From contig CAWJGT010000003.1 of the NCBI GenBank assembly GCA_963842525.1, forward strand, positions 672,001 through 736,000: 64,000 nt of DNA, in the 5' to 3' direction. Under the pieces are notes generated by a model. It was not told the DNA's origin. It worked only from the letters and a program-made list of their open reading frames with translations, and made no database searches. Origin of the DNA: an uncultured Holophagales bacterium (lineage in GTDB: Bacteria; Acidobacteriota; Thermoanaerobaculia; Multivoradales; UBA5704). Made by a program: the position numbers and the translations under genes. Below are positions 1 through 14,206 of the stretch, in pieces. The first letter of the stretch is position 1. Each line of letters opens with the position of its first letter.

Positions 1-1366
1 AGTGCGAAACGCGGGATGTCCCGGGGCTGGACAGTCCGCTGCGAGAGATAGCCGCTGGAAGAAGAGGATGTGGGGGCTCGCGGGGTCGCCGCCGTCCAAC
101 CGCCGGACCCGGCCTTCCAGGACTGGCCGGAAGGCGCGGGCCTGGGCGAGGAACGCGCGGTCGCGCCAGCCGCCGGAGCCGGTCAGCCGCTCGGCCAGGT
201 CCTGGATGAGCGAGGGCGGCGAGAGAGGCGGCGAGGTTGCGGGCGAGCCGCGACCTGCCGAGCTTGCGGCCGATCACCCAGCCGCGGACCTCGTCCTGGA
301 GGTGCCCGGCGTCGTTCTCGGCGCGGGCCGAGACCCTCTCCCAGGCGTAGCCGTCGGCGGCCGCCCATTCCGGCGCCCGCCAGCGGCCCTCCCGGCTGGC
401 GTGCTCGGCCGGCGATCTCCCGCTGGGCCTCCAGCATCCGCTGCGCGATCTCTCCTTCGCTCGGGAAGGGGAGAGAGGCGGTGCGCGAGGAGCGCTCCGA
501 GTGCGGGGACGACGACCGCGGTGCCCACCCAGAGCAGCGTGAGAACGCTCAAGCTGGTGGACGGTGCGCGGGTCGCGGCCGAGACGAGGAGGGCGGTGCA
601 GCGCGAAGAACGCCGCCGCCCACAGGCCGAGAGCACCACCAGCCCGGCTTTGAGCAGATCTTCGCTCCCGAGGGGCACCTCGCCCGGTCCGCGGAGCAGC
701 AGAACGCTCGCCGCCGTGCCCCGGACGCGGGAAGCGGCCAGGCAGATCCAGACGGCCGCCAGCTTGCCAGCAGGATCTTCCAGCGGGGGATCGGTGCGAG
801 AGGACGAGCTTCAGGGTGCCGGCCTCGCGCTCGCCGCAGATCGCGTCATAGCCCAGGAGGAAGGCGGCCAGGGAGAGGACGACCCGGATCGCGAACATCC
901 AGTCCGGCGGCGCGGGACTGGGGAGGCGGTGGTTGCCAGGTTGAACCCGCCGGAGCTCGGGCTCGGCAAAGGGGCTCAAGCGCCTGGGCGAAGAGGTCCG
1001 GCGTTGCGGACTGGCCGCCGTCCACCGCGAAGGCGAGGCGCCAAGCGGGGCGCAGCGCAGGATGGCGTAGCTCGGCCAGATCGTCCAAGGTCGCCCTGCG
1101 CAGCATCCTTCGTAATCCGCCGCGCGCCGCAGCGTGCGCCCGGCTCTCGTCGCGGTATCGCGACGAAGCCGTGAGGGCCGGCAGGATCAGCAGCACCAGG
1201 ATCAGGACCGAGACGGCCCGGAACCGGAAGCTCGCGATCAGCCGTCTCGTCTCCTGCCGTGCGATCGTCGCGATGACGCGGCGAGGAGCCTCGAGAGACG
1301 CCGGGCCAGGCCGCGCAACGCGGCCGGACGTCGGGGAGGGAAGGGGGGGGGCCAGCATCTCGTCAT
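1..1366 (-). CDS. ABC transporter permease subunit (paralog of the upstream permease); frameshifted, runs off the window edge
   Basis: ORF pieces 846..1358 (IATIARQETRRLIASFRFRAVSVLILVLL) and 274..678 (LLVSAATRAPSTSLSVLTLLWVGTAVVVP) mirror the N-terminal and TM motifs of the neighbouring permease; several frame changes. Confidence 0.75.
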
Positions 1367-2980
1367 CCCAGAGCGTAGCGCTCGAACCGAGCCCAGGCTG
1401 CGCCGGCCGTCACGGCAGTCAGCAGCAGCAGGGCGAGGCCCTCCGGAGCGGCGCCGCGGAGGCGTTCCAGGAATCCGCGGCCCCGATAGGCGAACCGCGG
1501 CAGCTCCGCCAGAGGCAGCCGCCGCTGACGGATCCGCCTCGATCTCCTCCCTCTGGAGCTCGATCTTCCGTGCCACCTCCGCCGAGCTGAGGCGGTTGAA
1601 GAGATCGCGGACGTTGGTCGCGTCGACCTCCTCCGGCCGGAGCCCGAGGAGGTGCGGCCAGGGATGCAGCCGGTCCGGCGGGTCGTCGGTGAACCAGCGC
1701 CAGGAACGGAAGGCTCCGCGGCGCGCGAGATACCCCATGAAGGTGAGGCGATAAGCCCGGCAGGCCGCCAGGAAGTCGTCATGGTCGGCGAGCGAGGTCC
1801 CGGAGAAGGTCTCGGAGAGCCGGTCCAGAAGGAAGGCCGGCGAAACGGCCGCAAGGCTCAGCCCCAGCCGCTCCCCCTGTCGCAGACGGTCTTCATACCG
1901 CTGCCGGACCGCGTGGAGCTTCCCGGCGTAGACGATGCCGGACTCGATCTCGACCTGATAATAGGCCCGCAACGCTTCGTAGTAGGCCATCGAGCCGTTG
2001 CGGTAGCGCACGGCCCGGTGCGGCCCGTCCATATAGGAGATCGCCGTGTGCCCGGTAAAGTCGCGGCGCAGGGGATGACGGGCGCGCACCGTCGCGAGCT
2101 TGCGCATCTCCTCTGCAGCCAACTCGCGGCCGCGGGCCGCGGCTCGGCCCGCGGCCTCCTGCGTGTCGACGAGCCCTGCCGCCACCGACCATGCCGCCGA
2201 CGGGATCACGATCACCGTCACCAGCCAGAGGAGGACCGAGGCCACCAGGGCCTGCGAGGCGCTGCGGGCGAGCAGGGAGACGAGCAGCCCGATCAGAAAC
2301 ATGAGCGTGAGATAGCCCATGTAGGAGGCGAGCAGCGCAGCCACGCGCAGCCCGCGGTCCTGGAAGGTCGCGAGCCCGACCGTCCCGGCCAGGACCCCGC
2401 AGCAGACCAGGAGCGCCGCCGCGAGAGGAAGAAACAGCGTGAGCAGCCCGCCGAGCACCTTGCCGGCGAGGACCGTCCGGCGCGAGGTGCCCTGCGCGAG
2501 CACCATGCGCAGCGTTCCCTCCTCGCGCTCACCGATCACCGCGTCGCAGGCGAGGAGCAGGGCGAGGAGGCCCAGGACGACCGCCACGATGGTGGTGAAA
2601 TCCACCTCGGAGGCCGGCAAGGCCACCAGGAGCTCGTTGCCCCGGGAGCCGCCCGCGGCCTCCGCCGGCACCGCGAACAGATGAATGCTCACGTCGGTGC
2701 CGAGGCGCGTCTCGAAACCCTGATCAAAGACGCTCAAGGGCTCCGGCGGGCGCACGAGGAGCGGCTGGAGAAAGGAATAGACCGAAGCGCTCGCGAGCTG
2801 TCTCTGATGCGCCGCCACGCGGTCGCGGTATGCGTTCCACCGCAGCTCGTAATCGCGCGCCGCGATCCACGTCGAGGCTGCCGCGAGCACGATCGTCAGG
2901 ATCGCTCCGACCCAGAAGCGGAAGCTCGCCAGGTGATGGAGCACTTCGCGATGGATACAGGCGCGGAGCATGGTTTTCAT
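1363..2980 (-). CDS. ABC transporter permease subunit (ABC-2-like); one frameshift near 1520
   Basis: N-terminal IHREVLHHLASFRFW; DAVIGEREEGTLRMVLAQGTSRRTVLAGK motif; multiple TM segments; C-terminal TM in the frame of ORF 1363..1854. Confidence 0.88.
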
Positions 2981-3021
2981 CCCGATCGATTGCGTTGCGT
3001 CACGGTCCGCGGACCGGAAAG

Positions 3022-3037
3022 TGCAGCCGCCGTGCCA
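3022..3037 (-). promoter_or_regulatory. sigma54 -24/-12 promoter for the ABC permease genes
   Basis: Minus strand TGGCACGGCGGCTGCA (GG-N10-GC), about 40 bp upstream of the ATG at 2980. Confidence 0.7.
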
Positions 3038-3077
3038 GGGCCCGTCGCAGCGGACCTCGCCGGATCGGCCCTCTCCG

Positions 3078-3115
3078 GGGTAGCCGGTTACCCTCCGGCG
3101 GGTAACGGCTTACCC
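3078..3115. promoter_or_regulatory. Tandem GGGTA-N6-TACCC palindromes; putative enhancer (UAS) between divergent sigma54 promoters
   Basis: gggta-gccggt-taccc (3078-3093) and gggta-acggct-taccc (3100-3115), 22 bp apart; same motif at 5147-5162. Confidence 0.62.
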
Positions 3116-3170
3116 ATTCCACAGCTCCTGGTCGACCCCGCTCCGGGAATCGTCCTCGTTGCCGGCGGCC

Positions 3171-3186
3171 TGGTCCGGCCCTTGCA
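3171..3186 (+). promoter_or_regulatory. sigma54 -24/-12 promoter for the radical SAM operon
   Basis: TGGTCCGGCCCTTGCA (GG-N10-GC with TTGCA), about 50 bp upstream of ATG 3239. Confidence 0.6.
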
Positions 3187-3238
3187 CTAGGGGACCTGCG
3201 TCCGCCGTCATCCATTCCACGATCGAAGAGAGGCCATC

Positions 3239-4748
3239 ATGATCCGGACCAGCAGCTACACGATCTATGTGAAATTGCCGGACAACGATGACGAGGTCCT
3301 CCTGGTGCACGGCTACACCGGCGCCTACGACAGGGTCTCGCGGGACGTGGCCGACTTCCTCCGCTCCCGCGAGACCCGAGGCACGGCGAAGCCTCTCTAC
3401 GGCGCGTGGAGCGCCGAGGCGGAGCCGGAGCCGCGGGACGCGGCGGGCGCCATCTCGGATGCGACGATCGACCTCCTGCGCGAGCAAGGTTATCTAACCG
3501 AGCTCTCCCCGGACGAGGAGGAAGCCTTTTTCTCGCAGCTCGCGACCGCGCTCCACGCACGCGCTCTGCAACAGGCGCCGAGCTACATCTTCATGCCGAC
3601 CTACGACTGCAACCTGCGGTGCTCCTATTGCTATCAGGACCACATGCGCACCGACTGCAGCTTCAAGCACCTGCTGCGCACCATGCGGCCGGCGATGATC
3701 GATCGCATTTTCGCCGCCCTGCCGCGCATCGAGGAGCGGCACGGCCTGGACGCGAGCACGCCGCGCCGGCGCAACATCGGCTTTTTCGGCGGCGAGCCGC
3801 TGCTCGCGGCGAACCGCCCGATCGTCGAGCAGATCCTCGCCCGTGCCTTCGAGATAGGGGAGGCGGATATCTGGGCCGTCACCAACGGCACGGAGATCGA
3901 CGCCTATGCCGACCTGCTCGGGCCCGCCGGCATCGCCTCTCTCCAGATCACGTTGGACGGCCCACCGCGCCAGCACGACCGCCGGCGTGTCTACGCGGAC
4001 GGCTCGGGCTCCTACGAGCGGATCGCGGCCAATATCTCGATGGCGCTCGCAAGGGGAGCCGCGGTCAGCATCCGGCTGAACGTGGACCGCGCGAACCTGG
4101 ACGACCTGCCGGCCATGGCCGACGAGATCGTGGCCCGCGGCTGGGACCGCCATCCGAAGTTCTCGGCCTACACCTCGCCGGTGCGGGCCGGCAACGGCAA
4201 GACCGATCCGAAGTCCGTCTTCAGCTCCGTGGGACCTCGACCGGTCGCTCACGCGGATGCGCGAGGAGCATCCGAACGTGGCGGTCCTGGCGCGCCCTGA
4301 CGAAGGGATGCGCGCGCGGGCGCGGCGGATCTTCGACGCCGACCAGGAGGTCCTGCCGAGCCTGCGGCCCAGCTTCTGCGGCGCCCACGACCGCATGTAC
4401 ATCTTCGATCCCTTCGGCGACATCTACGCCTGCTGGGAACGGACCGGCGACCCGGACGTGCGGATCGGCCGTGTCACTCCGGACGGCGACGTCGAGATGA
4501 AGGCCGACCAGGTCGCAATGTGGCGCAGCCGCACGGTGGCCAGCAACCCGGTCTGCCGGCGCTGCCGCTATGCGCTCCATTGCGGCGGCGGCTGCGCCGT
4601 GCTGGCGCTCTCCCAGAGCGGCCAATTCAATTCCAATTATTGTGACGGTTTCGCCGCCCGCTTCCGCGCGAGCGTCGCCGAAGCCTACCTGGCGCACGTC
4701 GCCGGGGCTCCGTCGGCCTCTCTCGGGCAGCGGGTCTGTGATCTCTGA
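3239..4748 (+). CDS. Radical SAM/SPASM-domain peptide maturase; frameshift near 4230
   Basis: CNLRCSYC motif, FFGGEPLL, QITLDGP in ORF 3239..4300; SPASM cysteines (FCGAH...YACW...CRRCRYALHCGGGC...YC) in ORF 4257..4748; N-terminal extension of RRE-like size. Confidence 0.93.
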
Positions 4749-4776
4749 TCAATGAAGCCTTCGCGGAGGAAGAATC

Positions 4777-5001
4777 ATGAAAAAGACACGACGCGCCCAG
4801 GAAATCACCCGTTTCGGCCGTGCCGCGTTCCGCATCACCGCGGCCGACGTGTGCAACGCGGAGCTGCTGGACGAGGCCCTCGCCCGGGTGATCGGAAGCC
4901 TTTCGATCACGCCGGGCGGAGATTGCTCTTTGTTCACCTGCCATCTCTACGCGCCTCCTCCGCTCCCTCCGCCCAACGCTGTAACTAATGTAACTGAATA
5001 G
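4777..5001 (+). CDS. Putative RiPP precursor peptide (74 aa)
   Basis: GGAGG RBS; 28 bp downstream of the rSAM stop; leader-like ELLDEALARVIGS followed by core-like LSITPGGDCSLFTCHLYAPPPLPPP; followed by a hairpin. Confidence 0.7.
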   Translation: MKKTRRAQEITRFGRAAFRITAADVCNAELLDEALARVIGSLSITPGGDCSLFTCHLYAPPPLPPPNAVTNVTE

Positions 5002-5017
5002 CCGATCGAGCCCTTCC

Positions 5018-5045
5018 GGCCCCTGGGAGGTTCCTCCCGGGGGCC
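5018..5045 (+). terminator. GC-rich hairpin after the precursor gene (terminator or mRNA stabiliser)
   Basis: GGCCCCTGGGAGG-TT-CCTCCCGGGGGCC; no adjacent U-tract. Confidence 0.5.
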
Positions 5046-5146
5046 TCATCCCTCCGTCGTTCGTAGCCTGCTCTCTCTCTCGTTCACTCCCGTCTGGCTT
5101 TCCCGGATTCCCAAACCGTCTTGTGATCATTGGCTCCAGGCGGCAA

Positions 5147-5162
5147 GGGTAATCGATTACCC
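5147..5162. promoter_or_regulatory. Perfect palindrome GGGTAATCGATTACCC; putative UAS
   Basis: 16-bp palindrome about 60 bp upstream of the sigma54 site at 5225; same GGGTA-N6-TACCC as 3078-3115. Confidence 0.62.
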
Positions 5163-5224
5163 AGGAATGGGAAAGCGATGACTCAGTTTTTACGGAAAAT
5201 GGCTGTAAATCGATGCTCCGGAAC

Positions 5225-5240
5225 TGGCATCGCCATTGCA
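5225..5240 (+). promoter_or_regulatory. sigma54 -24/-12 promoter for the fulvocin-related gene
   Basis: TGGCATCGCCATTGCA, near-consensus. Confidence 0.75.
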
Positions 5241-5325
5241 ATTTTCAAAGGCAGGTGCGGTAAGGAGATTGGAAACCCGCCTTGGGTCGAAAAACCGAGG
5301 CCCTTTGAAAAGAGAGGAGACAACG

Positions 5326-6047
5326 ATGACCAGGCTGAGCCGCAACCGTGTCCGTTTCTTCGTCCCCGCCGTCGCCTTCGCAGCCGTTCTCTTGCTGGCC
5401 CAGGCCGCTCCGGCGCAGATGTGTAACGCCGAAGCCCACAACTGGGTGAAGGCGCATCGCAACGAGCTTCCCCAAATCGTATGAGGAGTTCACGCAGTTC
5501 CCTCTGAATTATCGGCAAGCCATCTATTCGGCCCTGGATGCGGGGACCCGGAGCGGGCTCTGGCAGGCGCAGCTCGAGCTCGGCGCTGCAGCGTGAGGAC
5601 CTGACCGAGGCGCAGAGGGACGTCCTCTTCGAAGCGGTCCAGCTCGCCACGCCTGAGACCTTTGCGGCCGCCAAGAACCGGCGTGAGCGGAGCCGAGCGC
5701 TCCGGCAGGTGGAAGAGTTTGACAAGAGGGCGCGTGCGGCGTTCGGCGAAAAGGCGGGTGAGCTCTTTGGACGCCTCGGCCCTGCCGATCTCGAGTTCCT
5801 GGTGGTCGACCGGCGCGAAGCGCAGTCCACGAAACAGGGGGTCCGTGGCGTGAATTCGGCCCTTCTCACCACAGCCCCTCCTCTCTGCAGTTGCAGCACC
5901 GACTCCGACTGGTGCAACAACGCCTCGCACTGCGTGTCCGGCGGCTGCACGCTGGTCCGCGATGAGTGCGGCACTTGGTGGATCTACGATTGCAACGGCC
6001 TGTGCCATGTGAACGGGACGACCGAAATCATTCAGATCCAGCAGTAG
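5326..6047 (+). CDS. Bacteriocin fulvocin C-related protein (signal peptide, helical pro-region, 8-Cys C-terminal domain); two frameshifts near 5475 and 5575
   Basis: AGGAG RBS; signal peptide MTRLSRNRVRFFVPAVAFAAVLLLAQAAPA; WVKAHRNELP motif; C-terminus CSCSTDSDWC..C..C..CGTWWIYDCNGLC matches the Cys pattern of Myxococcus fulvocin C as recalled. Confidence 0.85.
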
Positions 6048-6070
6048 CTCGCGAGGTCCCACCTCCGACG

Positions 6071-6102
6071 AAAAGGGCCCGCGGCGCTGTGCCGCGGGCC
6101 TT
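6071..6102. terminator. Intrinsic terminator-like hairpin between convergent genes
   Basis: AAAAG-GGCCCGCGGC-GCTGT-GCCGCGGGCC-TT. Confidence 0.65.
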
Positions 6103-6320: not shown

Positions 6321-7256
6321 TCACCGAGCGCGCAGGCCCGTCTGCCGCAACAGCCACTCCCGCTGCGCCTGGAAATATCCTGGTGCGTAACGGGTGTAGA
6401 TCCGCTCGCCGTCCTTCACCTCGAACTCGAGGATGCCGTGGTCGGCGTTCGGAAAGATTTTCAGCTCGATGGGCTTTCCCTGCTGTTGCAGCCTTTGCAG
6501 CTCGACGATGGTGGCCTCGTTCGGCGCCTCCAGGTCCTGGCCGCCGAGGAGCCAGAGCATCGGCACGTCGAGCTTCGCGAGGAGCGGTCGCGAGTCGTGG
6601 AACCAGGAATCCTTGGTGGGGAGCTTCCGCTTTATATAAGCCTTGACCAGGGCGTGCGGATACTTGAGGAAGCCTCCGCCTTCCGACCGCCCTGTGCCCC
6701 TCTTGTCGAAGACGAAGGCGGCGATGCCGTACGCTGCGAAGTGATAGGGCTCGTGGTAGTAGAGCGTCGCGGCCTCGTCGCCCGAGCCGTGGACGAGGAC
6801 CACCGCCGGGAAAGGTCCCTCGCCTTGCGGCAGCACCAGCTTGCCGAACAGCTCGATGTCGCCGCTGCGGAAGGTCGCGGCCTCCTCCCGTAGAGGCACC
6901 CTCTCGGCGCTTTTGGCCACACCGCCCACATCGGTCCATTCGAGACGGGCAGCCCTCGCCCCCTCCTTCCGGAAACGCACCCGCAGGTTGACGGGCGCAT
7001 CGGAAGCCCAGCCCGGGCCGGAGTGGAAGGAGAGGCCCTCGTCATCCGAGGGATAGAGCCGTTGGCTCCGGCCGGACTCCAGATCGCGGAAACGGAACGT
7101 GTCCTCGTCACTGTGGGCGATGGTGATCACCCGGCCGTCGTCGAAACGGTACGCACCCACGAAAGGCGAGGGCTCCAGGTCCCGCGAGCAGGCGGCCGCC
7201 AGGAGGAGGAGAGCGAAAACGGGCGCCAGGTGGCCCAGGAAGGTGCGTCGTCGCAT
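6321..7256 (-). pseudogene. Lipoprotein alpha/beta hydrolase (S9/S15-like) lacking the central nucleophile-elbow segment
   Basis: Lipobox LLLAAAC; GPFPAVVLVHGSG; FDKRGTGRSEG joined directly to the C-terminal part with GGQD and FPNADHG; no GxSxG after the DKRG motif. Confidence 0.72.
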
Positions 7257-7438
7257 GCCAGTCCTTTCCATGTGCCCGGGATACAGCCGCGGACACACGA
7301 CGCACACTACGGAAGGGAGCTGCTGAGGGTTCCAGGAACGATCTCAGAGCGTCCGGACGGGCAAGCGACCGGTCGCGTTGACTTGCGCAGTGTAGAATCC
7401 TGCGGCGGTACAAGATCGAGGAAACGGAGCTCGCCGTC

Positions 7439-8485
7439 ATGTGGGATACATGCCTGAGGCGCCTCGCCTGCGCCCTCATGCTGCTCGTCGGACCGGCCGT
7501 GAGCGAGGCGCGGGCCGCCGAGGGCCCGGCCACGCCTCCAGCGCAGCCCACGCGGGTCGCGGCGAGCTTCTTCTTCAGCACGATCGAGAACGTTGACTCG
7601 GTCAATGAGACGTTCAACGCCGATTTCTATCTGCGCCTGGAGTGGGACGATCCGCGGCTCGCGGGGCTGCCTTCCGAGCAGATCGACCGCGCCACGATGT
7701 GGCGGCCGAAGGTCGAGGTGGTCAACTCGCGCGACGTTGAGCAGCCTTGGGAGCCGTACCTCCTGTTCCCCGGGCCGGGCAAGCTCACCCTGATGAACCG
7801 CTTCCATGGGACCTTCGCCGCGCCCATGGATCTCCACGACTTCCCGTTCGACCACCAGGTGCTCCCCGTCGAGGTCGAGTCGCTGCAATACACGGCGCGC
7901 CAGGTGGCCTTCCACTATCCCGGGCACGGGCGCCAGGAGCAGGGCTGGAGCACGATGCTGAAGCAGGAGGAGCTGCTGGGGAGCGGTGTACGGCTGCCTG
8001 AATGGAAGATCGAGGCGGTCCAGGTGCGCGAGCTCGAAAAGTACTACAACTTCATGGACGCCAGATATTCGCGGTACCGCATCGAAATCCTGGTCTCCCG
8101 CCGGTCCGGGTTCTACGTCTGGAAGGTCATCGTCATCGAGGCGATGATCCTGGTGCTGTCCTGGGTCATCTTCCTGATGGATGCGGGCGAGATCGGCAAC
8201 CGTTCGGCCGTCTCCGTCACGCTCCTCCTCGCGACGGTGGCGTTCAGCTACGTGGTCAGCGGAATCACTCCGCGGGTCTCCTACCTGACCCTGTTGGACT
8301 GGTTCCTGCTGGGGTGCTTCGGCCTGATTTTCCTGTCGATGCTGGAGACGGTTGTCGTCTACCTGCTGCACCGGCGGGGAACGAGGGCCGCCGTGGCCGC
8401 GCGGATCGACCGCTGGTCGTTGGCGTTGTTCCCCGTCCTCTTCCTGCTGGTCAATGCCCTGCTCTGGGTGCCGGTGCTGGTGTGA
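7439..8485 (+). CDS. Prokaryotic pentameric ligand-gated ion channel (GLIC/ELIC-like)
   Basis: Signal peptide; FNADFYLRLEWDDPRL, WRPKVEVVN, Pro-loop DLHDFPFD, pre-M1 Arg (VSRRSGFY); four TM helices; M2-M3 PRVSYLT. Confidence 0.92.
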   Translation: MWDTCLRRLACALMLLVGPAVSEARAAEGPATPPAQPTRVAASFFFSTIENVDSVNETFNADFYLRLEWDDPRLAGLPSEQIDRATMWRPKVEVVNSRDVEQPWEPYLLFPGPGKLTLMNRFHGTFAAPMDLHDFPFDHQVLPVEVESLQYTARQVAFHYPGHGRQEQGWSTMLKQEELLGSGVRLPEWKIEAVQVRELEKYYNFMDARYSRYRIEILVSRRSGFYVWKVIVIEAMILVLSWVIFLMDAGEIGNRSAVSVTLLLATVAFSYVVSGITPRVSYLTLLDWFLLGCFGLIFLSMLETVVVYLLHRRGTRAAVAARIDRWSLALFPVLFLLVNALLWVPVLV

Positions 8486-8557: not shown

Positions 8558-8746
8558 ATGGCACGATTCTCCGGTACTGCGGACAACGGTGACATCAATA
8601 TAGCCCTGCGCCTGGCGATTGAAGCTGCCAAGGAGGGGTTGGGGTCGGATTTCGTCAAATGGATCCTGATTGTCGCCCACGGGGCCAACGGGGGCGCCGT
8701 CGGCCAGAACGACCTGACGGTAGAGATCGAGGCGTACGTCCCCTGA
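8558..8746 (+). CDS. Small hypothetical protein (62 aa), possibly dodecin-like fold
   Basis: Own sigma70 promoter, GGGGAGGT RBS; beta-alpha-beta-beta hydrophobic pattern. Confidence 0.72.
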   Translation: MARFSGTADNGDINIALRLAIEAAKEGLGSDFVKWILIVAHGANGGAVGQNDLTVEIEAYVP

Positions 8747-8830: not shown

Positions 8831-11050
8831 TTACCGTTGTGGGCGACGTGTCGGGGTGCCTCCCTGGACGGCGTCGCCGGTGACCACCAGGGCGAAGGGC
8901 TGCGGCCCGTTCGGCACGTTGAACGAATGGATGGTCACGATGTAGACGCCGGTCGCCGGGCTGTTGAGCAGCACCTGCTCCAGGGTGTTCCTGCGGTCGG
9001 CGGCGCCGCCGGTGGCCGAGGTGCCGCCGGCGAAGACGTTGCCGCGCCACAGGGTGCCGGTGGGGCCGTTCACCTCCAGGTCGAGGTCGTTGTTGAGGTT
9101 GGGGTTGGCCGCCGGGGTCGACGGGAAGTCGGTCCACGCCAGGGTGGCCTTGAATGGCTCGGCGCTGCTGTTGACGCTGAAGATCCAGCTCTGGGTCTGC
9201 GCGCTTCTGGTGAAGGCGGGGGCGTCGTCCTCGACCCAGAGCTTGCGGGTCTGGCCGGTGAAGAAGAGGGCGTTCTCCAGCAGCACGCGGCCCCAGCCCT
9301 GGCAGTTGGCGGGGATCGCGGTCGTGCCGGTCATGTTGGCGGCCGAATTGACCAGCGTGGCCTTGAGCAGGGCGGCGGACGGGGTGAAGCCGTTGGCGCT
9401 GTTCTCGCTGCCCGTGGGGTACCAGCCTTCGGTGTAGTACTGGCGGATTAGGGCCGTCAGGCCGGCGACGCCGGGCGAGGCCATGCTGGTGCCCGAGCTG
9501 AACTTGGTGCCGCAGTTGTTCGTGGTGACGCTCAGGTCGTTGTTCGCCGAAACGATGCTCGACCCGGGGATGGTGATGTCGGGCTTGATGCGGCCGTCGA
9601 GCGTCGGGCCGCAACTGCTGAACGAGGACATGGAGTTGGCGCTCGTGCCGCGCAGTGTGGAGCCTACCGAGACTCCGTTCTTGTTCGTGGAGGGGCTGCC
9701 GACCGTGCCGGTCCCCGGCCCGGCATTTCCGGCCGCGAAGAAGATCAGGAAGTCCGGGTATTTCCACATGAACTCGTCGACGTCCTGGCTGCCGGCCGAG
9801 TAGTTGTTCTGCACCGCGGCGTTCTCGTTGTCGCCCCAGGAGTTGGTGTGCAGGCGGACGCCCTGGTTGTAGGCCTGCAGGAAGACCGGATTCAGGTCGA
9901 CCACCGGGCAGCCGATACCGGGCAGGTCGCCGCAGTTGTCCACCTGGAAACCGGCGTCCTGGATGACCAGCTTGGCGCCCGGTGCCATGCCGTCGGCCGT
10001 GTCGTGGACCAGCGGGGTGGCGAAGTTGTCGCCGGCCGCGGTGCCGGCCACGTGCGAGCCGTGGTCCTGCGTGTCCCACTCGGTGCCCGCGATTCCGCCG
10101 TTGCAGTCGTTCGACCAGAGGAAGTCGACGGCGATCACTTTGCGCTGGTTGGTGTCGACGACGGTTCCGCCGTTGCAGGCATTGGTGGGCGGCAGGCCGC
10201 GGGCGGGGTCGCGGAACCAGCACATGTCGGCGTCGATGCCGGTATCGACGATGCCGATGACCTGCCCTTCGCCGAAGATCCCCTGGCTGAAGATCGGCGT
10301 GGTCTGGCCGCCGGAGAGGCCTGACTGGCCGACCCAGATGGTGGTGTCGTTCGCCAGCGTCCGCCGCCCCTCGACCTCGATCCAGAAGACGTCGCGCAGG
10401 CGGGCGAGGCTGTCGCGGTGCTGCGCGATCTCCGAAGGGGCCAGGAGGAGCCGGATGCGGGAGAAGCGGGGGCCGCTGGCCTCACCCACGGACGGCCGGA
10501 GGCCGAGGTCGCGGACCTGCTGGACCACCTCGCCGAGGTCTGCATCCGGGAAGACGTGGAGCAGGACCGGGCGCGCCTTGCCCGAGATGAGCCCGCGCGC
10601 CGGGTCCGCCGCCTCGGCGGCCTTGAACGCGGCGGCAGCCCGCGAGATCTTGTAAAAAGGATGATAGGGGCCGGACCAGGTCGCGCCCATCCCGGCCAGC
10701 CGCTTGCCGGTGAGCGAGCCCGCCGGCACCTTCACCAGGTAGGCGTAGTAGGGGAGGTAGGTATAGACCCGCAGGCTCGCCGCCCGCAGCGCCTGCTCCT
10801 GCCGGGCCGTGATCGGGCCGGGGAACTTGACCAGCACGATTTCGTCCTCGACCGTGTCGCCCGGACCGACGCGCAGCGCCTCCGGGATCGCCGGCCGCGG
10901 CCGGCTCGTGTCGATGACGGTCGATTCAAGGGAGATCACAGCCGCCGCCCGCGCTTCCAGGCTCCGCAGCTCCTGCCCCCGGAGGACCGGAGAGAAGAGG
11001 GTGGCAACGCACAGCACCGACAGACTCAGCGCCTGCTTTGAATTGGACAT
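8831..11050 (-). CDS. S8 subtilase (KP-43-like), copy 1; C-terminal domain largely deleted
   Basis: Signal peptide; triad IVDTG / HGSHVAG / GTSMA; FAAGN; QGWGRV; highly similar to 11150..13900; residual last codons at 8783-8820. Confidence 0.92.
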   Translation of the reverse strand: MSNSKQALSLSVLCVATLFSPVLRGQELRSLEARAAAVISLESTVIDTSRPRPAIPEALRVGPGDTVEDEIVLVKFPGPITARQEQALRAASLRVYTYLPYYAYLVKVPAGSLTGKRLAGMGATWSGPYHPFYKISRAAAAFKAAEAADPARGLISGKARPVLLHVFPDADLGEVVQQVRDLGLRPSVGEASGPRFSRIRLLLAPSEIAQHRDSLARLRDVFWIEVEGRRTLANDTTIWVGQSGLSGGQTTPIFSQGIFGEGQVIGIVDTGIDADMCWFRDPARGLPPTNACNGGTVVDTNQRKVIAVDFLWSNDCNGGIAGTEWDTQDHGSHVAGTAAGDNFATPLVHDTADGMAPGAKLVIQDAGFQVDNCGDLPGIGCPVVDLNPVFLQAYNQGVRLHTNSWGDNENAAVQNNYSAGSQDVDEFMWKYPDFLIFFAAGNAGPGTGTVGSPSTNKNGVSVGSTLRGTSANSMSSFSSCGPTLDGRIKPDITIPGSSIVSANNDLSVTTNNCGTKFSSGTSMASPGVAGLTALIRQYYTEGWYPTGSENSANGFTPSAALLKATLVNSAANMTGTTAIPANCQGWGRVLLENALFFTGQTRKLWVEDDAPAFTRSAQTQSWIFSVNSSAEPFKATLAWTDFPSTPAANPNLNNDLDLEVNGPTGTLWRGNVFAGGTSATGGAADRRNTLEQVLLNSPATGVYIVTIHSFNVPNGPQPFALVVTGDAVQGGTPTRRPQR

Positions 11051-11149
11051 CCTGTCCTCCATACTGCCCGGCGGACCATGCGGTCTTCATCACCACCAAC
11101 CATATCGCGATGGCCTACCGGTATGGCGATGCCGCGCTGGCCTCTGTGC

Positions 11150-13900
11150 TCAATTCTGCTGCACGATCCTCACGTCATCCACTGCTGCTTCGACCAGGCT
11201 GGCCGTGCTCGCGTCCGCGGCCTCGATGCGGATGCGCACGGTCTGGCCCGCGAAGGCGGTGATGTTGGCCGAGCCGGTGGTCCAGACGGCGTCCACGTCG
11301 GTGGCCGCGCCCAGCCTTTCGAGCACGGTCGAGGTGGTTGTCCCGACCACCCGGATGCGCAGGAAGTCGGCGCTGGACGAGTTATTGCCGTGGGCGAGGT
11401 AGTAGGAGAAGGACAGGGTGAGCGTACCGGTCGCGGGCAGGGTGATGGCCGGCGATTGGATGGTGGTCGTGCCGCCGTCGATGTCGTTGGCCCCGGCTGA
11501 CGAGCCCGCGAGGCGGGCGGTCACCAGGTCGTTGACGCCGCTCACGGTGGTGCCAAGCTGTTTGGGGCCGCTCGAATCGGTCGCCTGCGGATCGCCCCGC
11601 TCCCAGAGCCCGAGGGTCGCCGTATCGGTCCCCAAGGGATTGACTGTCCAGCCCAGGCTTGTTTCGAAGTTGTCGAAGAAGACGGTGACAGGCGGCGGTG
11701 GCGGGGTGCCTCCCTGGACGGCGTCGCCGGTGACCACCAGCGCAAAGGGCTGCGGCCCGCTCGGCACGTTGAACGAACGGATGGTCACCGTATAGACGCC
11801 GGTCGCCGGGCTGTTGAGCAGTACCTGCTCCAGGGTGTTTCTGCGGTCGGCGGTGCCGCCGGTGGCCGAGGCGCCGCCGGTGAAGACGTTGCCGCGCCAG
11901 AGGGTGCCGGTGGGGCCGGTCACTTCCAGGTCGAGGTCGTTGTTGAGGTTGGGATTGGCTGCCGGCGTCGACGGGAAGTCGGTCCACGCCAGGGTGGCCT
12001 TGAACGGCTCGGTGCTGCTGCTCACGCTGAACGTCCAGCTCTGTGTCTGCGCGCTGGCGGTGAAGGCGGGCGCGTCGTCCTTGGCCCAGAGCTTGCGCGT
12101 CTGGCCGGTGAAGAAGAGGGCGTTCTCCAGCAGTACCCGGCCCCAGCCCTGGCAGTTGGCCGGGATCGCGGTCGTGCCGGTCATGTTGGCGGCCGAGTTG
12201 ATCAAGGTGGCTTTCAGCAGGGCGGCGGACGGGGTGAAGCCGTTGGCGCTGTTCTCGCTCCCCGTGGGATACCAGCCTTCGGTGTAGTACTGGCGGATCA
12301 GCGCCGTCAGGCCGGCGGCGCCGGGGGAGGCCATGCTGGTCCCCGAGCTGGACTTGGTGCCGCAGTTGTTCGTCGTGACGTTCAGGTCGTTGTTCGCCGA
12401 GACGATGCTGGAGCCGGGGACGGTGACGTCGGGCTTGATGCGGCCGTCGAGCGTCGGGCCGCAACTGCTGAACGAGGACATGGAATTGGCGCTCGTACCG
12501 AGCAGGGTGGAGCCCACCGAGACGCCGTTCTTGGCCGTGGAGGGGCTCCCGACCGTGCCGGTCCCCGGACCGGCGTTGCCGGCCGCGAAGAAGATCAGGA
12601 AGTCCTTGTGGTTCCACATGAACTCGTCGACGTCCTGGCTGCCGGCCGAGTAGTTGTTCTGCACCGCGGCGTTTTCGTTGTCGCCCCAGGAATTGGTGTG
12701 CAGGCGGGCGCCCTGCGTGTAGGCCTGCTGGAAGATCGGGTTCAGGTCGACCACGGGGCAGCCGATGCCGGGCAGGTCGCCGCAGTTGTCGACTTGATAG
12801 CCGGCGTCCTGGATGACCAGCTTCGCGCCCGGCGCCATGCCGTCCGCCGTGTCGTGGACCAGCGGGGTGGCGAAGTTGTCGCCGGCCGCGGTGCCGGCCA
12901 CGTGGGAGCCGTGGTCCTGCGTGTCCCACTCGGTGCTCGCGATCCCGCCGCTGCACTCGCTCGACCAGAGGAAGTCGACGGCGATCACCTTGCGCTGGTT
13001 GGTGTCGACCACCGTCCCGCCATTGCAGGCGTTGGTGGGCGGCAGGCCGCGGGCCGGGTCGCGGAACCAGCACATATCGGCGTCGATGCCGGTGTCGATC
13101 ACGCCGATGGTCTGCCCTTCGCCGAAGATCCCCTGGCTGAAGATCGGCGTGGTCTGGCCGCCCGAAAGGCCCGACTGGCCGACCCAGACGGTGGTGTCGT
13201 TCGCCAGCGTCCGCCGGCCCTCGACCTCGATCCAGAAGACGTCGCGCAGGCGGGCGAGGTCGTCGCGGTGCCGTGCGATCTCCGGAGGGGTGAGGAGGAG
13301 CCGGATGCGGGAGAAGCGGGAGCCGCGGGCCTTGCCCAGGGATGCCCGGAGGCCGAGGTCGCGGACCTGCTGCACCACCTCGCCGAGGTCTGCGTCCGGG
13401 AAGACGTGGAGCAGGACCGGACGCGCCTTGCCCGCGGCGAGCTCGCGCGCCGGGTCCGCCGCCTCGGTAGCCTCGAATGCCGCGGCGGCGCGGGAGATTT
13501 TGTAAAAAGGATGGTAGGGGCCGGACCAGGCCGCGCCCATCCCGGCCAGCCGCTTCCCCGTGAGCGATCCTGCCGGCACCTTCACCAGGTAGGCGTAGTA
13601 GGGGAGATAGGTATAGACCCGCAGGCTCGCCGCCCGCAGCGCCCGTTCCTGCCGGGCCGTGATCGGGCCGGGGAACTTGACCAGCACGACCTCGTCCTCG
13701 ACGGTGTCTCCCGGGCCGACGCGCAGCGCCTCCGGGATGGCCGGCTGCGGCCGGCTCGTGTCGATGACGGTTGATTCAAGAGAAATCACCACCGCCGCCC
13801 GTGCCTCCAGGCTCCGCAGCTCCTGGCCCCGGAGAGCCGGAGAGAGGAGGGTGGCAATGCACAGCAACAACAGATTCGACACCTGCTTTGAATTGGGCAT
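11150..13900 (-). CDS. S8 subtilase (KP-43-like), copy 2, with an extra C-terminal beta-sandwich (MAM-like) domain
   Basis: GGAGG RBS before MPNSKQ; triad VIDTG / HGSHVAG / GTSMA; Pro linker then FFDNFE...VEAAVDDVRI domain. Confidence 0.94.
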   Translation of the reverse strand: MPNSKQVSNLLLLCIATLLSPALRGQELRSLEARAAVVISLESTVIDTSRPQPAIPEALRVGPGDTVEDEVVLVKFPGPITARQERALRAASLRVYTYLPYYAYLVKVPAGSLTGKRLAGMGAAWSGPYHPFYKISRAAAAFEATEAADPARELAAGKARPVLLHVFPDADLGEVVQQVRDLGLRASLGKARGSRFSRIRLLLTPPEIARHRDDLARLRDVFWIEVEGRRTLANDTTVWVGQSGLSGGQTTPIFSQGIFGEGQTIGVIDTGIDADMCWFRDPARGLPPTNACNGGTVVDTNQRKVIAVDFLWSSECSGGIASTEWDTQDHGSHVAGTAAGDNFATPLVHDTADGMAPGAKLVIQDAGYQVDNCGDLPGIGCPVVDLNPIFQQAYTQGARLHTNSWGDNENAAVQNNYSAGSQDVDEFMWNHKDFLIFFAAGNAGPGTGTVGSPSTAKNGVSVGSTLLGTSANSMSSFSSCGPTLDGRIKPDVTVPGSSIVSANNDLNVTTNNCGTKSSSGTSMASPGAAGLTALIRQYYTEGWYPTGSENSANGFTPSAALLKATLINSAANMTGTTAIPANCQGWGRVLLENALFFTGQTRKLWAKDDAPAFTASAQTQSWTFSVSSSTEPFKATLAWTDFPSTPAANPNLNNDLDLEVTGPTGTLWRGNVFTGGASATGGTADRRNTLEQVLLNSPATGVYTVTIRSFNVPSGPQPFALVVTGDAVQGGTPPPPPVTVFFDNFETSLGWTVNPLGTDTATLGLWERGDPQATDSSGPKQLGTTVSGVNDLVTARLAGSSAGANDIDGGTTTIQSPAITLPATGTLTLSFSYYLAHGNNSSSADFLRIRVVGTTTSTVLERLGAATDVDAVWTTGSANITAFAGQTVRIRIEAADASTASLVEAAVDDVRIVQQN

Positions 13901-13993
13901 CCTGTCCTCCAGGGATGGAAGAAGAGCTGCGCGCTCCCTGTAAAAAGGGGTGCCCGAGGGCCGGTTGCGCGCGCCGGTCGCCTGTAGGACAGT

Positions 13994-14009
13994 TGGCCTC
14001 GTCTTTGCA
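13994..14009 (+). promoter_or_regulatory. sigma54 -24/-12 promoter
   Basis: TGGCCTCGTCTTTGCA (GG-N10-GC), about 30 bp upstream of a small ORF with AAGGAGG RBS. Confidence 0.6.
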
Positions 14010-14038
14010 GAAAGATCCTCCCGAAGGAGGATGGAGAC

Positions 14039-14173
14039 GTGACACGAGAAGCCCAACCCCTGAAGACTCTCCCGAGACCGTTGCTTCCCATCCTCCTCTA
14101 CCTGCTGATTTCCCTGGCCGGGACTCCGGATCTCTCCCGCCTCACGGCCCTGGTCTCCACCCTCATTCCCTGA
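14039..14173 (+). CDS. Putative 44-aa hydrophobic small protein (not in the ORF track)
   Basis: AAGGAGG 8 nt before GTG; MTREAQPLKTLPRPLLPILLYLLISLAGTPDLSRLTALVSTLIP-stop. Confidence 0.55.
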   Translation: MTREAQPLKTLPRPLLPILLYLLISLAGTPDLSRLTALVSTLIP

Positions 14174-14206
14174 ACGAACGCGCAAGCACTGCGTCGTCGA
14201 GCCGCG

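Follow-up and report, generated by a model that had tools for sequence, protein, structure and literature searches.

What function can be assigned to a locus in which a radical S-adenosylmethionine (rSAM)/SPASM enzyme, a small peptide, a transporter of the ATP-binding cassette (ABC) type, and sigma-54 promoters are found side by side? This question is raised by the first 6.1 kb of a 64-kb stretch of DNA from an uncultured Holophagales bacterium, the whole of which is referred to here as the window (C3:672001-736000 of the source genome, G000) and whose nearest homologous loci carry the label Thermoanaerobaculia or Acidobacteriota. The original prediction held that an rSAM/SPASM gene, a 74-amino-acid (aa) peptide gene, divergent ABC permease genes, and a fulvocin C-related gene form a co-regulated peptide-weapon locus; all of these genes are present, and the shared sigma-54/enhancer control is borne out, with a cognate activator encoded next door, whereas the designation as a weapon is borne out only in part. 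The conserved cassette is composed of seven genes, encoding the rSAM/SPASM maturase, its precursor peptide, two ABC permeases, a degenerate ATPase, a kinase, and a sigma-54 activator. We propose, from sequence and from analogy with known systems, that it may constitute a self-amplifying, quorum-sensing-like peptide-signal switch with the ABC complex as candidate receptor, a reading to which we assign a probability of roughly 0.5. The features of the locus are as follows.

1 to 1358, minus strand: ABC-2 permease B, running about 140 bases past the left edge of the window (tblastn with an intact relative, L020; DNA alignment; Pfam)
1363 to 2971, minus strand: ABC-2 permease A of the DUF3526 type, with two large extracytoplasmic loops, candidate receptor subunit
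3022 to 3037, minus strand: sigma-54 -24/-12 box of the ABC operon, TGGCACGGCGGCTGCA
3078 to 3093: palindrome 1, GGGTA-N6-TACCC, predicted enhancer site
3100 to 3115: palindrome 2, 22 bp after palindrome 1
3171 to 3186, plus strand: sigma-54 box of the rSAM-precursor operon, TGGTCCGGCCCTTGCA
3239 to 4748, plus strand: maturase with RiPP recognition element (RRE), radical SAM, and SPASM regions, about 500 aa in relatives (hidden Markov models [HMMs], tblastn, alignment)
4777 to 5001, plus strand: precursor peptide, 74 aa
5018 to 5045, plus strand: GC-rich inverted repeat 3' of the precursor gene, possible terminator (by sequence, unfolded)
5147 to 5162: palindrome 3, predicted enhancer site of the cargo gene
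5225 to 5240, plus strand: sigma-54 box of the fulvocin-like gene, TGGCATCGCCATTGCA
5326 to 6047, plus strand: bacteriocin fulvocin C-related protein, variable cargo (NF033852)
6073 to 6102, plus strand: GC-rich inverted repeat 3' of the cargo gene, possible terminator (by sequence, unfolded)

Beyond the left edge of the window, the permease operon closes with an ABC ATPase gene, and a histidine kinase gene and the gene of an NtrC-type sigma-54 activator converge on this operon; all three adjoin the permease genes in the source genome and in relatives. Among 61 related genomes, the enzyme is encoded in 13 and permease A in 12, each of which also carries the rSAM gene; the extra genome, G002, possesses cassette-less paralogues only. 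Across the phylum, the enzyme family was found in 4 of 301 genomes. A scan of species genomes returned 27 loci, of which the 24 close ones were tallied (a Methylobacterium locus, a truncated locus, and a distant locus already present as L033 were left out), and a metagenome scan provided 80 loci, 53 of which were examined.

The sigma-54 boxes predicted at 3022 to 3037 (minus strand), 3171 to 3186, and 5225 to 5240 were confirmed. The bare GG-N10-GC motif, which occurs 25 times per kb, was rejected as uninformative with respect to sigma-54 control; the fuller consensus TGGY-N8-TGCW occurs 0.2 times per kb. The palindrome GGGTA-N6-TACCC is present in five copies in the 9.95-Mb genome, three of which fall within the window (at 3078, 3100, and 5147), and its arms combined with 15 other spacer lengths give 0 to 4 matches each; near other palindrome matches in the genome (C3:1274051 and C34:26195) no sigma-54 box was found. 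Both intergenic regions carry the palindrome as had been claimed, the second copy in the first of them having been missed. In 24/24 related Thermoanaerobaculia loci, the 300 bp upstream of the rSAM gene contain one or more palindromes and boxes on both strands, two palindromes being spaced 21 to 22 bp apart in 23 of these loci; in 7 of the 24, a further palindrome-box element is located no more than 4 kb downstream. The palindrome-plus-box pattern was detected in 13 of the 61 genomes, including all 12 with permease A, and a reversed-control pattern gave three matches in total across the same genomes; because the pattern was derived from such loci, its informative part is its absence from 48 of the 49 other genomes. 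The activator displays a REC-AAA-HTH architecture of the NtrC type, and rpoN of the source genome scores above the cut-off. In its boxes, upstream palindromes, cognate bacterial enhancer-binding protein, and rpoN, the locus has the make-up of an enhancer-dependent sigma-54 regulon, of which the start sites (about 12 nt past the GC of each box) and activator binding to the palindromes are predicted. The 16-bp palindrome and the sigma-54 box together furnish a ready tag for clusters under such control.

The window enzyme matches Radical_SAM (PF04055) with 55.3 bits (cut-off, 29.5) and the SPASM profile TIGR04085 with 56.1 bits (cut-off, 27). In an alignment of 59 rows, the three cysteines of the CxxxCxxC motif and the SPASM cysteines C377, 395, 436, 439, 445, 449, and 465 are invariant, and a single cysteine precedes the AuxI hairpin, matching the layout of CteB. 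This protein is the closest relative in the Protein Data Bank by sequence (E value, 2e-18) and also the closest by fold to the predicted model of a relative (pLDDT, 86), with a Z score of 22.8 over residues 5 to 481, from the N-terminal RRE onward; the model has three strands followed by helices at its N terminus, as an RRE should, and its residue 5 aligns to CteB residue 1. CteB keeps one auxiliary iron open for the substrate cysteine (PMC8326336). The RRE-rSAM-SPASM layout and the adjacent cysteine-containing precursor are shared with the ranthipeptide maturases CteB/SCIFF and PapB, which act on thermocellin and freyrasin, and SCIFF ranthipeptides have been linked to clostridial quorum sensing (PMC8102284).

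Despite this likeness, the intact relative falls below all NCBIfam maturase cut-offs (best, 111 versus 525) among the models compared, namely, PapB, SCIFF, CefB, geopeptide, TIGR04463, DynA, YhhB, FxsB, and DarE. Membership in the PapB (105 against a cut-off of 340), SCIFF (60/425), CefB (110/600), and geopeptide (90/400) families was rejected, as was that in the triceptide families, whose maturases belong to the XyeB/GrrM/FxsB/YhhB group (YhhB, 54/445; FxsB, 46/370). The suggestion that the enzyme and its precursor lie outside characterised classes thus holds for a conserved pair that fits no named maturase family. A Pfam Autoind_bind match on 27 of the 59 rows overlaps CxxxCxxC, is below the cut-off in the two rows examined, and was treated as a chance hit. 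At the six active-site positions given by Precord et al., the family has Y/F, F, V, T, W, and E, versus F, F, T, S, H, and Q in CteB; the precursor table from that source (3,421 entries) holds no related row by core or leader terms, one unrelated peptide having matched. A plasmid collection contained no match to the enzyme. In all, 1,095 database proteins match it at an E value of 1e-60 or lower.

The precursor encoded in the window comprises a helical leader up to a GG-like site, the core C-S-L-F-T-C-H-L-Y (4924 to 4950), and a proline tail. An adjacent precursor with C-x-x-[FYW]-x-C is encoded at 31/33 homologous loci, which answers the question of neighbourhood conservation posed with the original prediction; L029 encodes a different cysteine-containing peptide. 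The conserved core reads C-x-x-F/Y-x-C-x-x-F/Y, and its ninth position, lying outside the motif used for selection, is F or Y in all 31 (30 distinct sequences). By comparison, PapB requires Cys-X3-Asp/Glu (PMC9413430). That motif is not present here, the conserved partner being an aromatic residue at i+3, and because the i+4 positions vary (T/N/S/V and A/V/W/M), the PapB rule is inapplicable. Given that CteB is the closest relative, two thioether rings are likely to be formed, each joining Cys(i) to the aromatic residue at i+3 through its alpha or benzylic beta carbon, with a cyclophane as a further possibility; this prediction derives from sequence and from a structural model. A bond from cysteine sulfur to an alpha carbon would be of the sactipeptide kind, and one to a beta or gamma carbon of the ranthipeptide kind. 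F-x-C and Y-x-P are also readable as three-residue motifs, such that cyclophane chemistry could apply. Paralogues with 53 to 60% identity are accompanied by CxxF repeats or by other cysteine-rich cores, some without an aromatic residue at i+3, and these precursors of more distant members point to the cysteine as the donor. A search of the ESM Atlas with the precursor gave a best value of 0.81, a lead at most, and nothing named.

Cassette-less paralogues with C-x-x-F-x repeat precursors occur at L031, L032, L034, and L036 (G003, G002, and G037), three of them being followed by M50 peptidase-like genes, and other cysteine-rich precursors are encoded at L035, L182, and L183. In the cultured host Methylobacterium soli, a 54%-identical enzyme, with no regulatory cassette, is followed by a 112-aa precursor containing repeated G-C-I-[IV]-[ND]-W cores (L061:7550-7888).

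The transporter part of the cassette departs from what is expected of an exporter. The permeases contain the Pfam domains ABC2_membrane_2 and DUF3526, permease B belonging to the former, with six predicted transmembrane (TM) segments in a relative, and permease A being a distant match to NosY; the ABC complex is NosY/ABCA-like. Loop motifs in permease A are common to 30 peptide-linked rows and absent from 13 others. The cassette encodes one ATPase gene; in the peptide-linked ATPases, the Walker A lysine is retained in 24/24, the signature serine in 5/24, the catalytic glutamate in 19/24 (glutamine in the other 5), and the switch histidine in 1/24, so that serine, glutamate, and histidine are found together in none of the 24, versus 16/16 homologues from modules without the enzyme. 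A canonical ABC exporter, having Walker A/B, Ser, Glu, and His in at least one site, was consequently rejected as a description of the cassette ATPases. ABCA3 served to verify where the motifs lie, and its second entry likewise has glutamine at the catalytic position; in TAP, the Glu-to-Gln exchange lowers hydrolysis yet keeps ATP binding (PMC12422388). Being degenerate, the ATPase is a poor exporter candidate. Its decay and the permease loop changes may represent a single event in one clade rather than 24 separate ones.

The kinase is of the GAF-HisKA-HATPase type and lacks a membrane sensor: no N-terminal TM helix was found in 21 rows, in all of which the maximum 19-residue hydropathy (0.98 to 1.74) is below that of five of the six permease A segments (2.07 to 2.61), the maximum falling inside the GAF domain in peptide-linked rows. 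Surface motifs of this domain are invariant in both the peptide-linked and the enzyme-less groups. Prediction of a complex between an ATPase dimer and a kinase GAF dimer gave 0.00, 0.43, and 0.00 in three runs, which speaks neither for nor against binding.

Among the metagenome loci, an ATPase and two permeases of this kind, in many cases accompanied by the GAF kinase, the activator, and the palindrome, were encountered on low-GC gut-type contigs and in other bacteria, where the enzyme-less modules adjoin TolC-like and NEW3-domain genes. It appears, from sequence comparison, that an older ABC-coupled two-component module was joined to a RiPP (ribosomally made, post-translationally modified peptide) pair and lost its ability to pump. 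The widespread module, made up of a helix-less GAF kinase, a sigma-54 activator, the palindrome, an intact ATPase, at least two DUF3526-type permeases, and TolC-like or NEW3-domain genes, but not the rSAM gene, was observed at L124, L125, L128, L134, L136, L137, L142, and L143 (metagenome) and at L112, L116, L117, and L148; no published description of it was found. The open-access literature likewise yielded no paper on the enzyme family or cassette, subscription journals, including the RiPP-RaS atlas, being outside this coverage, nor did it yield the combination of radical SAM, SPASM, RiPP, and Acidobacteriota.

The gene behind the third palindrome and its box encodes a protein that scores 81.8 bits against NF033852 (cut-off, 35), an intact 243-aa homologue in L037 reaching 112.7 bits. 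The protein has a signal peptide-like N terminus, a helical pro-region, and an eight-cysteine C-terminal domain; it shares with fulvocin C, the Myxococcus fulvus bacteriocin mentioned in PMC8708641, this C-terminal domain and a score above the cut-off, its family membership being assigned by HMM alone and its bacteriocin activity predicted. The gene is present in 2/31 related loci and in 4/61 genomes (2 of the 12 with the cassette and 2 without it) and is interchangeable cargo. Because of this interchangeability, because no peptidase or dedicated immunity gene was found conserved in the cassette core, and because the ATPase is degenerate, the claim of a peptide-weapon locus is unsupported as stated; in its conserved core the cassette resembles a signalling circuit more than a weapon, although a toxic peptide is possible.

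Elsewhere, the element precedes other genes, whose functions are given here by annotation. These include the precursor gene itself (L037 and L038), a class III lanthipeptide precursor gene with LanKC (L041; 622 bits versus a cut-off of 575), genes for secreted cysteine-rich proteins (L056 and L096), a thioredoxin-like CxxC gene (L050), an M50-type RiPP cluster (L033), and a gene beside an SbnA-like cluster (L098); in L025, a half-site and a box lie ahead of an acyl-ligase gene. AraC genes follow the precursor gene in five related loci. Class III lanthipeptide-like precursors were also noted 3' of the cassette precursor in L038, L041, L043, and L055, with LanKC above the cut-off in L038 and L041. 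In L094:5013-6503 (C34:379013), an imperfect palindrome with a sigma-54 box 40 bp further on is located ahead of a gene for a secreted-looking 408-aa protein that has no Pfam or NCBIfam match, and in L097 of G050, palindromes and a sigma-54 box lie ahead of an operon encoding unannotated secreted proteins.

These components can be assembled into the following working model. By family and fold, the maturase is expected to bind the leader via its RRE and to join every core cysteine with the Phe/Tyr that follows three positions later, thus producing two small thioether rings. The leader might then be cut at the GG-like site and the peptide exported by a transporter encoded elsewhere, a weakly grounded step. 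Outside the cell, the peptide would be bound by the outer loops of the ABC complex, which is presumed to act as receptor for the cytoplasmic GAF kinase; such a role is the simplest use for a non-hydrolysing ABC complex that is retained beside a sensorless kinase and is feedback controlled with the peptide genes. The phosphorylated NtrC-type activator, whose architecture and sites are evident, would bind the tandem palindromes and activate sigma-54 transcription of the enzyme-peptide operon, of the ABC operon (providing positive feedback), and of any element-bearing cargo, here the fulvocin-like secreted protein.

In its fullest form, this model amounts to an undescribed quorum-sensing design, in which a bicyclic Cys-to-Phe/Tyr thioether peptide, a non-pumping ABC receptor built on a pseudo-ATPase homodimer, a GAF kinase, and a sigma-54 master switch govern secreted products and clusters of Thermoanaerobaculia; with all of its parts taken together, the proposal is less likely than not to be correct. 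Were it true, an ABC complex would have been turned from pump to receptor, with a before-and-after set (16 intact versus 24 degenerate ATPases) at hand, a ribosomal peptide signal would exist in Acidobacteriota, and a large maturase family without a named model would be recognised, its core motif pointing to Cys-to-Phe/Tyr rings. The nine-residue core is easy to make and test and could aid the activation of silent clusters in a group that is rich in them and for the most part uncultured. If the enzyme chemistry alone holds, the result is a new RiPP family of moderate interest.

Partial precedents are available for each element of this circuit. Agr systems share with the cassette a layout of divergent autoregulated promoters, a small cyclised ribosomal peptide (predicted in the cassette), and a two-component output; in the cassette, however, no AgrB/AgrC-type genes were seen, the links are likely to be rSAM thioethers rather than a thiolactone, the candidate receptor is an ABC complex, and the host is a soil acidobacterium. 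For a Dickeya kinase that lacks a ligand domain, the permease VfmG is the proposed co-sensor (PMC9306890). The features described for Vfm that have counterparts in the cassette are genes for making the signal, a putative ABC co-sensor, a kinase devoid of a ligand-binding domain, and a regulator that activates its own locus. The differences are the non-ribosomal nature of the Vfm signal, the two TM helices of VfmI (none in the cassette kinase), and the covariation of VfmG with the signal, of which a low-power test gave no sign in the cassette permeases. The AraC genes behind the precursor gene in five related loci have a parallel in the AraC relay that Vfm employs along with a sigma-54 regulator. 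In BceAB-BceS, a kinase without an extracytoplasmic sensor relies on the ABC transporter whose operon it controls (PMC8534201, which also treats AgrC). The cassette resembles Bce and Vfm in having a kinase without an extracytoplasmic ligand domain linked to the ABC operon that it controls, but its kinase is not an intramembrane one with a pair of TM helices. In Bce modules the kinase sits within the membrane and signalling follows transporter activity, whereas the cassette combines a soluble GAF kinase with a sigma-54 activator, a NosY/ABCA-like ABC complex, and a degenerate ATPase.

A number of observations weigh against the signal-switch reading. With respect to the chemistry, identity to CteB is only about 20%, anSME ties with it for the core fold, and an eighth, C-terminal cysteine is also invariant in 59/59 rows and could fill the open iron site, implying other chemistry. 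The activator has GAFTDA in place of GAFTGA in its loop, and a position weight matrix scan of the source genome returned a single plausible distal target (C34:379013; score, 14.9), for which reason the regulon could be a small one. The cassette encodes neither an exporter nor a peptidase, two C39 domains being encoded elsewhere in the genome, and slow hydrolysis by the ABC complex is possible, since 19/24 ATPases retain the catalytic glutamate. G050 has the element (L097, C1:997303-997384), and the kinase was not found there. Between permease loops and core, no covariation in excess of shared ancestry was seen (partial r of -0.08 to 0.13 given activator distance; 22 loci), in a test of low power as the core varies little. 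Two further points concern the cue itself: the module exists without the peptide in other bacteria, and its ancestral cue was therefore not the rSAM peptide, and G024 carries a kinase/activator pair with no ABC or rSAM gene in 19 kb. This orphan pair (L187:9456-12033; 50% and 69% identical) is situated between transposase-like genes and a nonribosomal peptide synthetase/polyketide synthase (NRPS/PKS) cluster, with no palindrome within 19 kb.

Such observations lend themselves to an alternative in which the peptide is one output among others, the cue detected by the kinase is unrelated to it (a small molecule bound by the GAF domain or an envelope state relayed through the ABC complex), and the rSAM operon came under an older regulon as cargo. 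The palindrome-bearing module beside TolC-like and NEW3-domain genes, the GAF surface motifs shared by both groups, the NRPS/PKS-associated orphan pair, and the absence of a covariation signal between permease and core would all be accommodated; however, unlike other cargo, the rSAM gene accompanies permease A in every genome that has it, and the decay of the ATPase, together with new permease loops in place of TolC-like neighbours, coincides with the peptide-linked clade, albeit as one event, which leads us to consider this alternative improbable. A weapon with self-protection, in which a Bce-like ABC complex senses an antimicrobial peptide and boosts both its production and protection from it while fulvocin-like or lanthipeptide cargo is co-deployed, extends the original prediction and would fit the bacteriocin-like proteins and lanthipeptide clusters among the cargoes, the longer CxxF-repeat precursors and M50 peptidase-like genes adjoining cassette-less paralogues, and the response of Bce-type modules to peptide antibiotics (PMC8534201). 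Resistance by pumping would nevertheless depend on a functional ATPase, whereas degenerate motifs are found at all 24 loci; the core is also nearly invariant across genera, and the fulvocin gene is rare. We therefore regard the weapon as rather unlikely, noting that it overlaps with the signal switch if the peptide is both toxin and inducer.

It might also be asked whether, irrespective of the family's role in other genomes, this particular copy is a pseudo-cassette in decay. A single extra base is present in the rSAM gene near 4227-4229; the frame of permease A is broken once, near 1526-1528, and that of the fulvocin-like gene twice, near 5477 and 5580, while permease B, the ATPase, and the activator each carry several single-base indels; by a method that missed permease B and the ATPase, the cassette has 4 indels in 6.0 kb, versus 5 in 35.4 kb of other sampled genes. 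This greater density, with many more indels in permease B, the ATPase, and the activator, is what decay would predict. On the other hand, none of 2,413 aligned codons is a stop, synonymous and non-synonymous counts resemble those of an intact pair, rpoB and rpoN are likewise split in the source assembly, and the extra bases at 978, 1124, 1528, and 4227 are missing from a strain that is 92% alike. Decay is thus highly improbable and the frameshifts are likely to be assembly errors, for which reason intact relatives were used for protein analysis. A search of sequencing runs listed one DNA run, at a share of 0.07, and no RNA run.

Further along the window, a pentameric ligand-gated ion channel homologue (7439-8485, plus strand; Neur_chan_LBD and membrane domains) is followed by a 62-aa open reading frame without a family match (8558-8746). 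A secreted alpha/beta hydrolase, apparently without the central stretch of its family profiles, is encoded at 6321-7307 on the minus strand. On the same strand, 8831-14185 holds two tandem near-duplicate S8 subtilase genes, the second of which in reading order (8831-11062) looks shorter at its C terminus.

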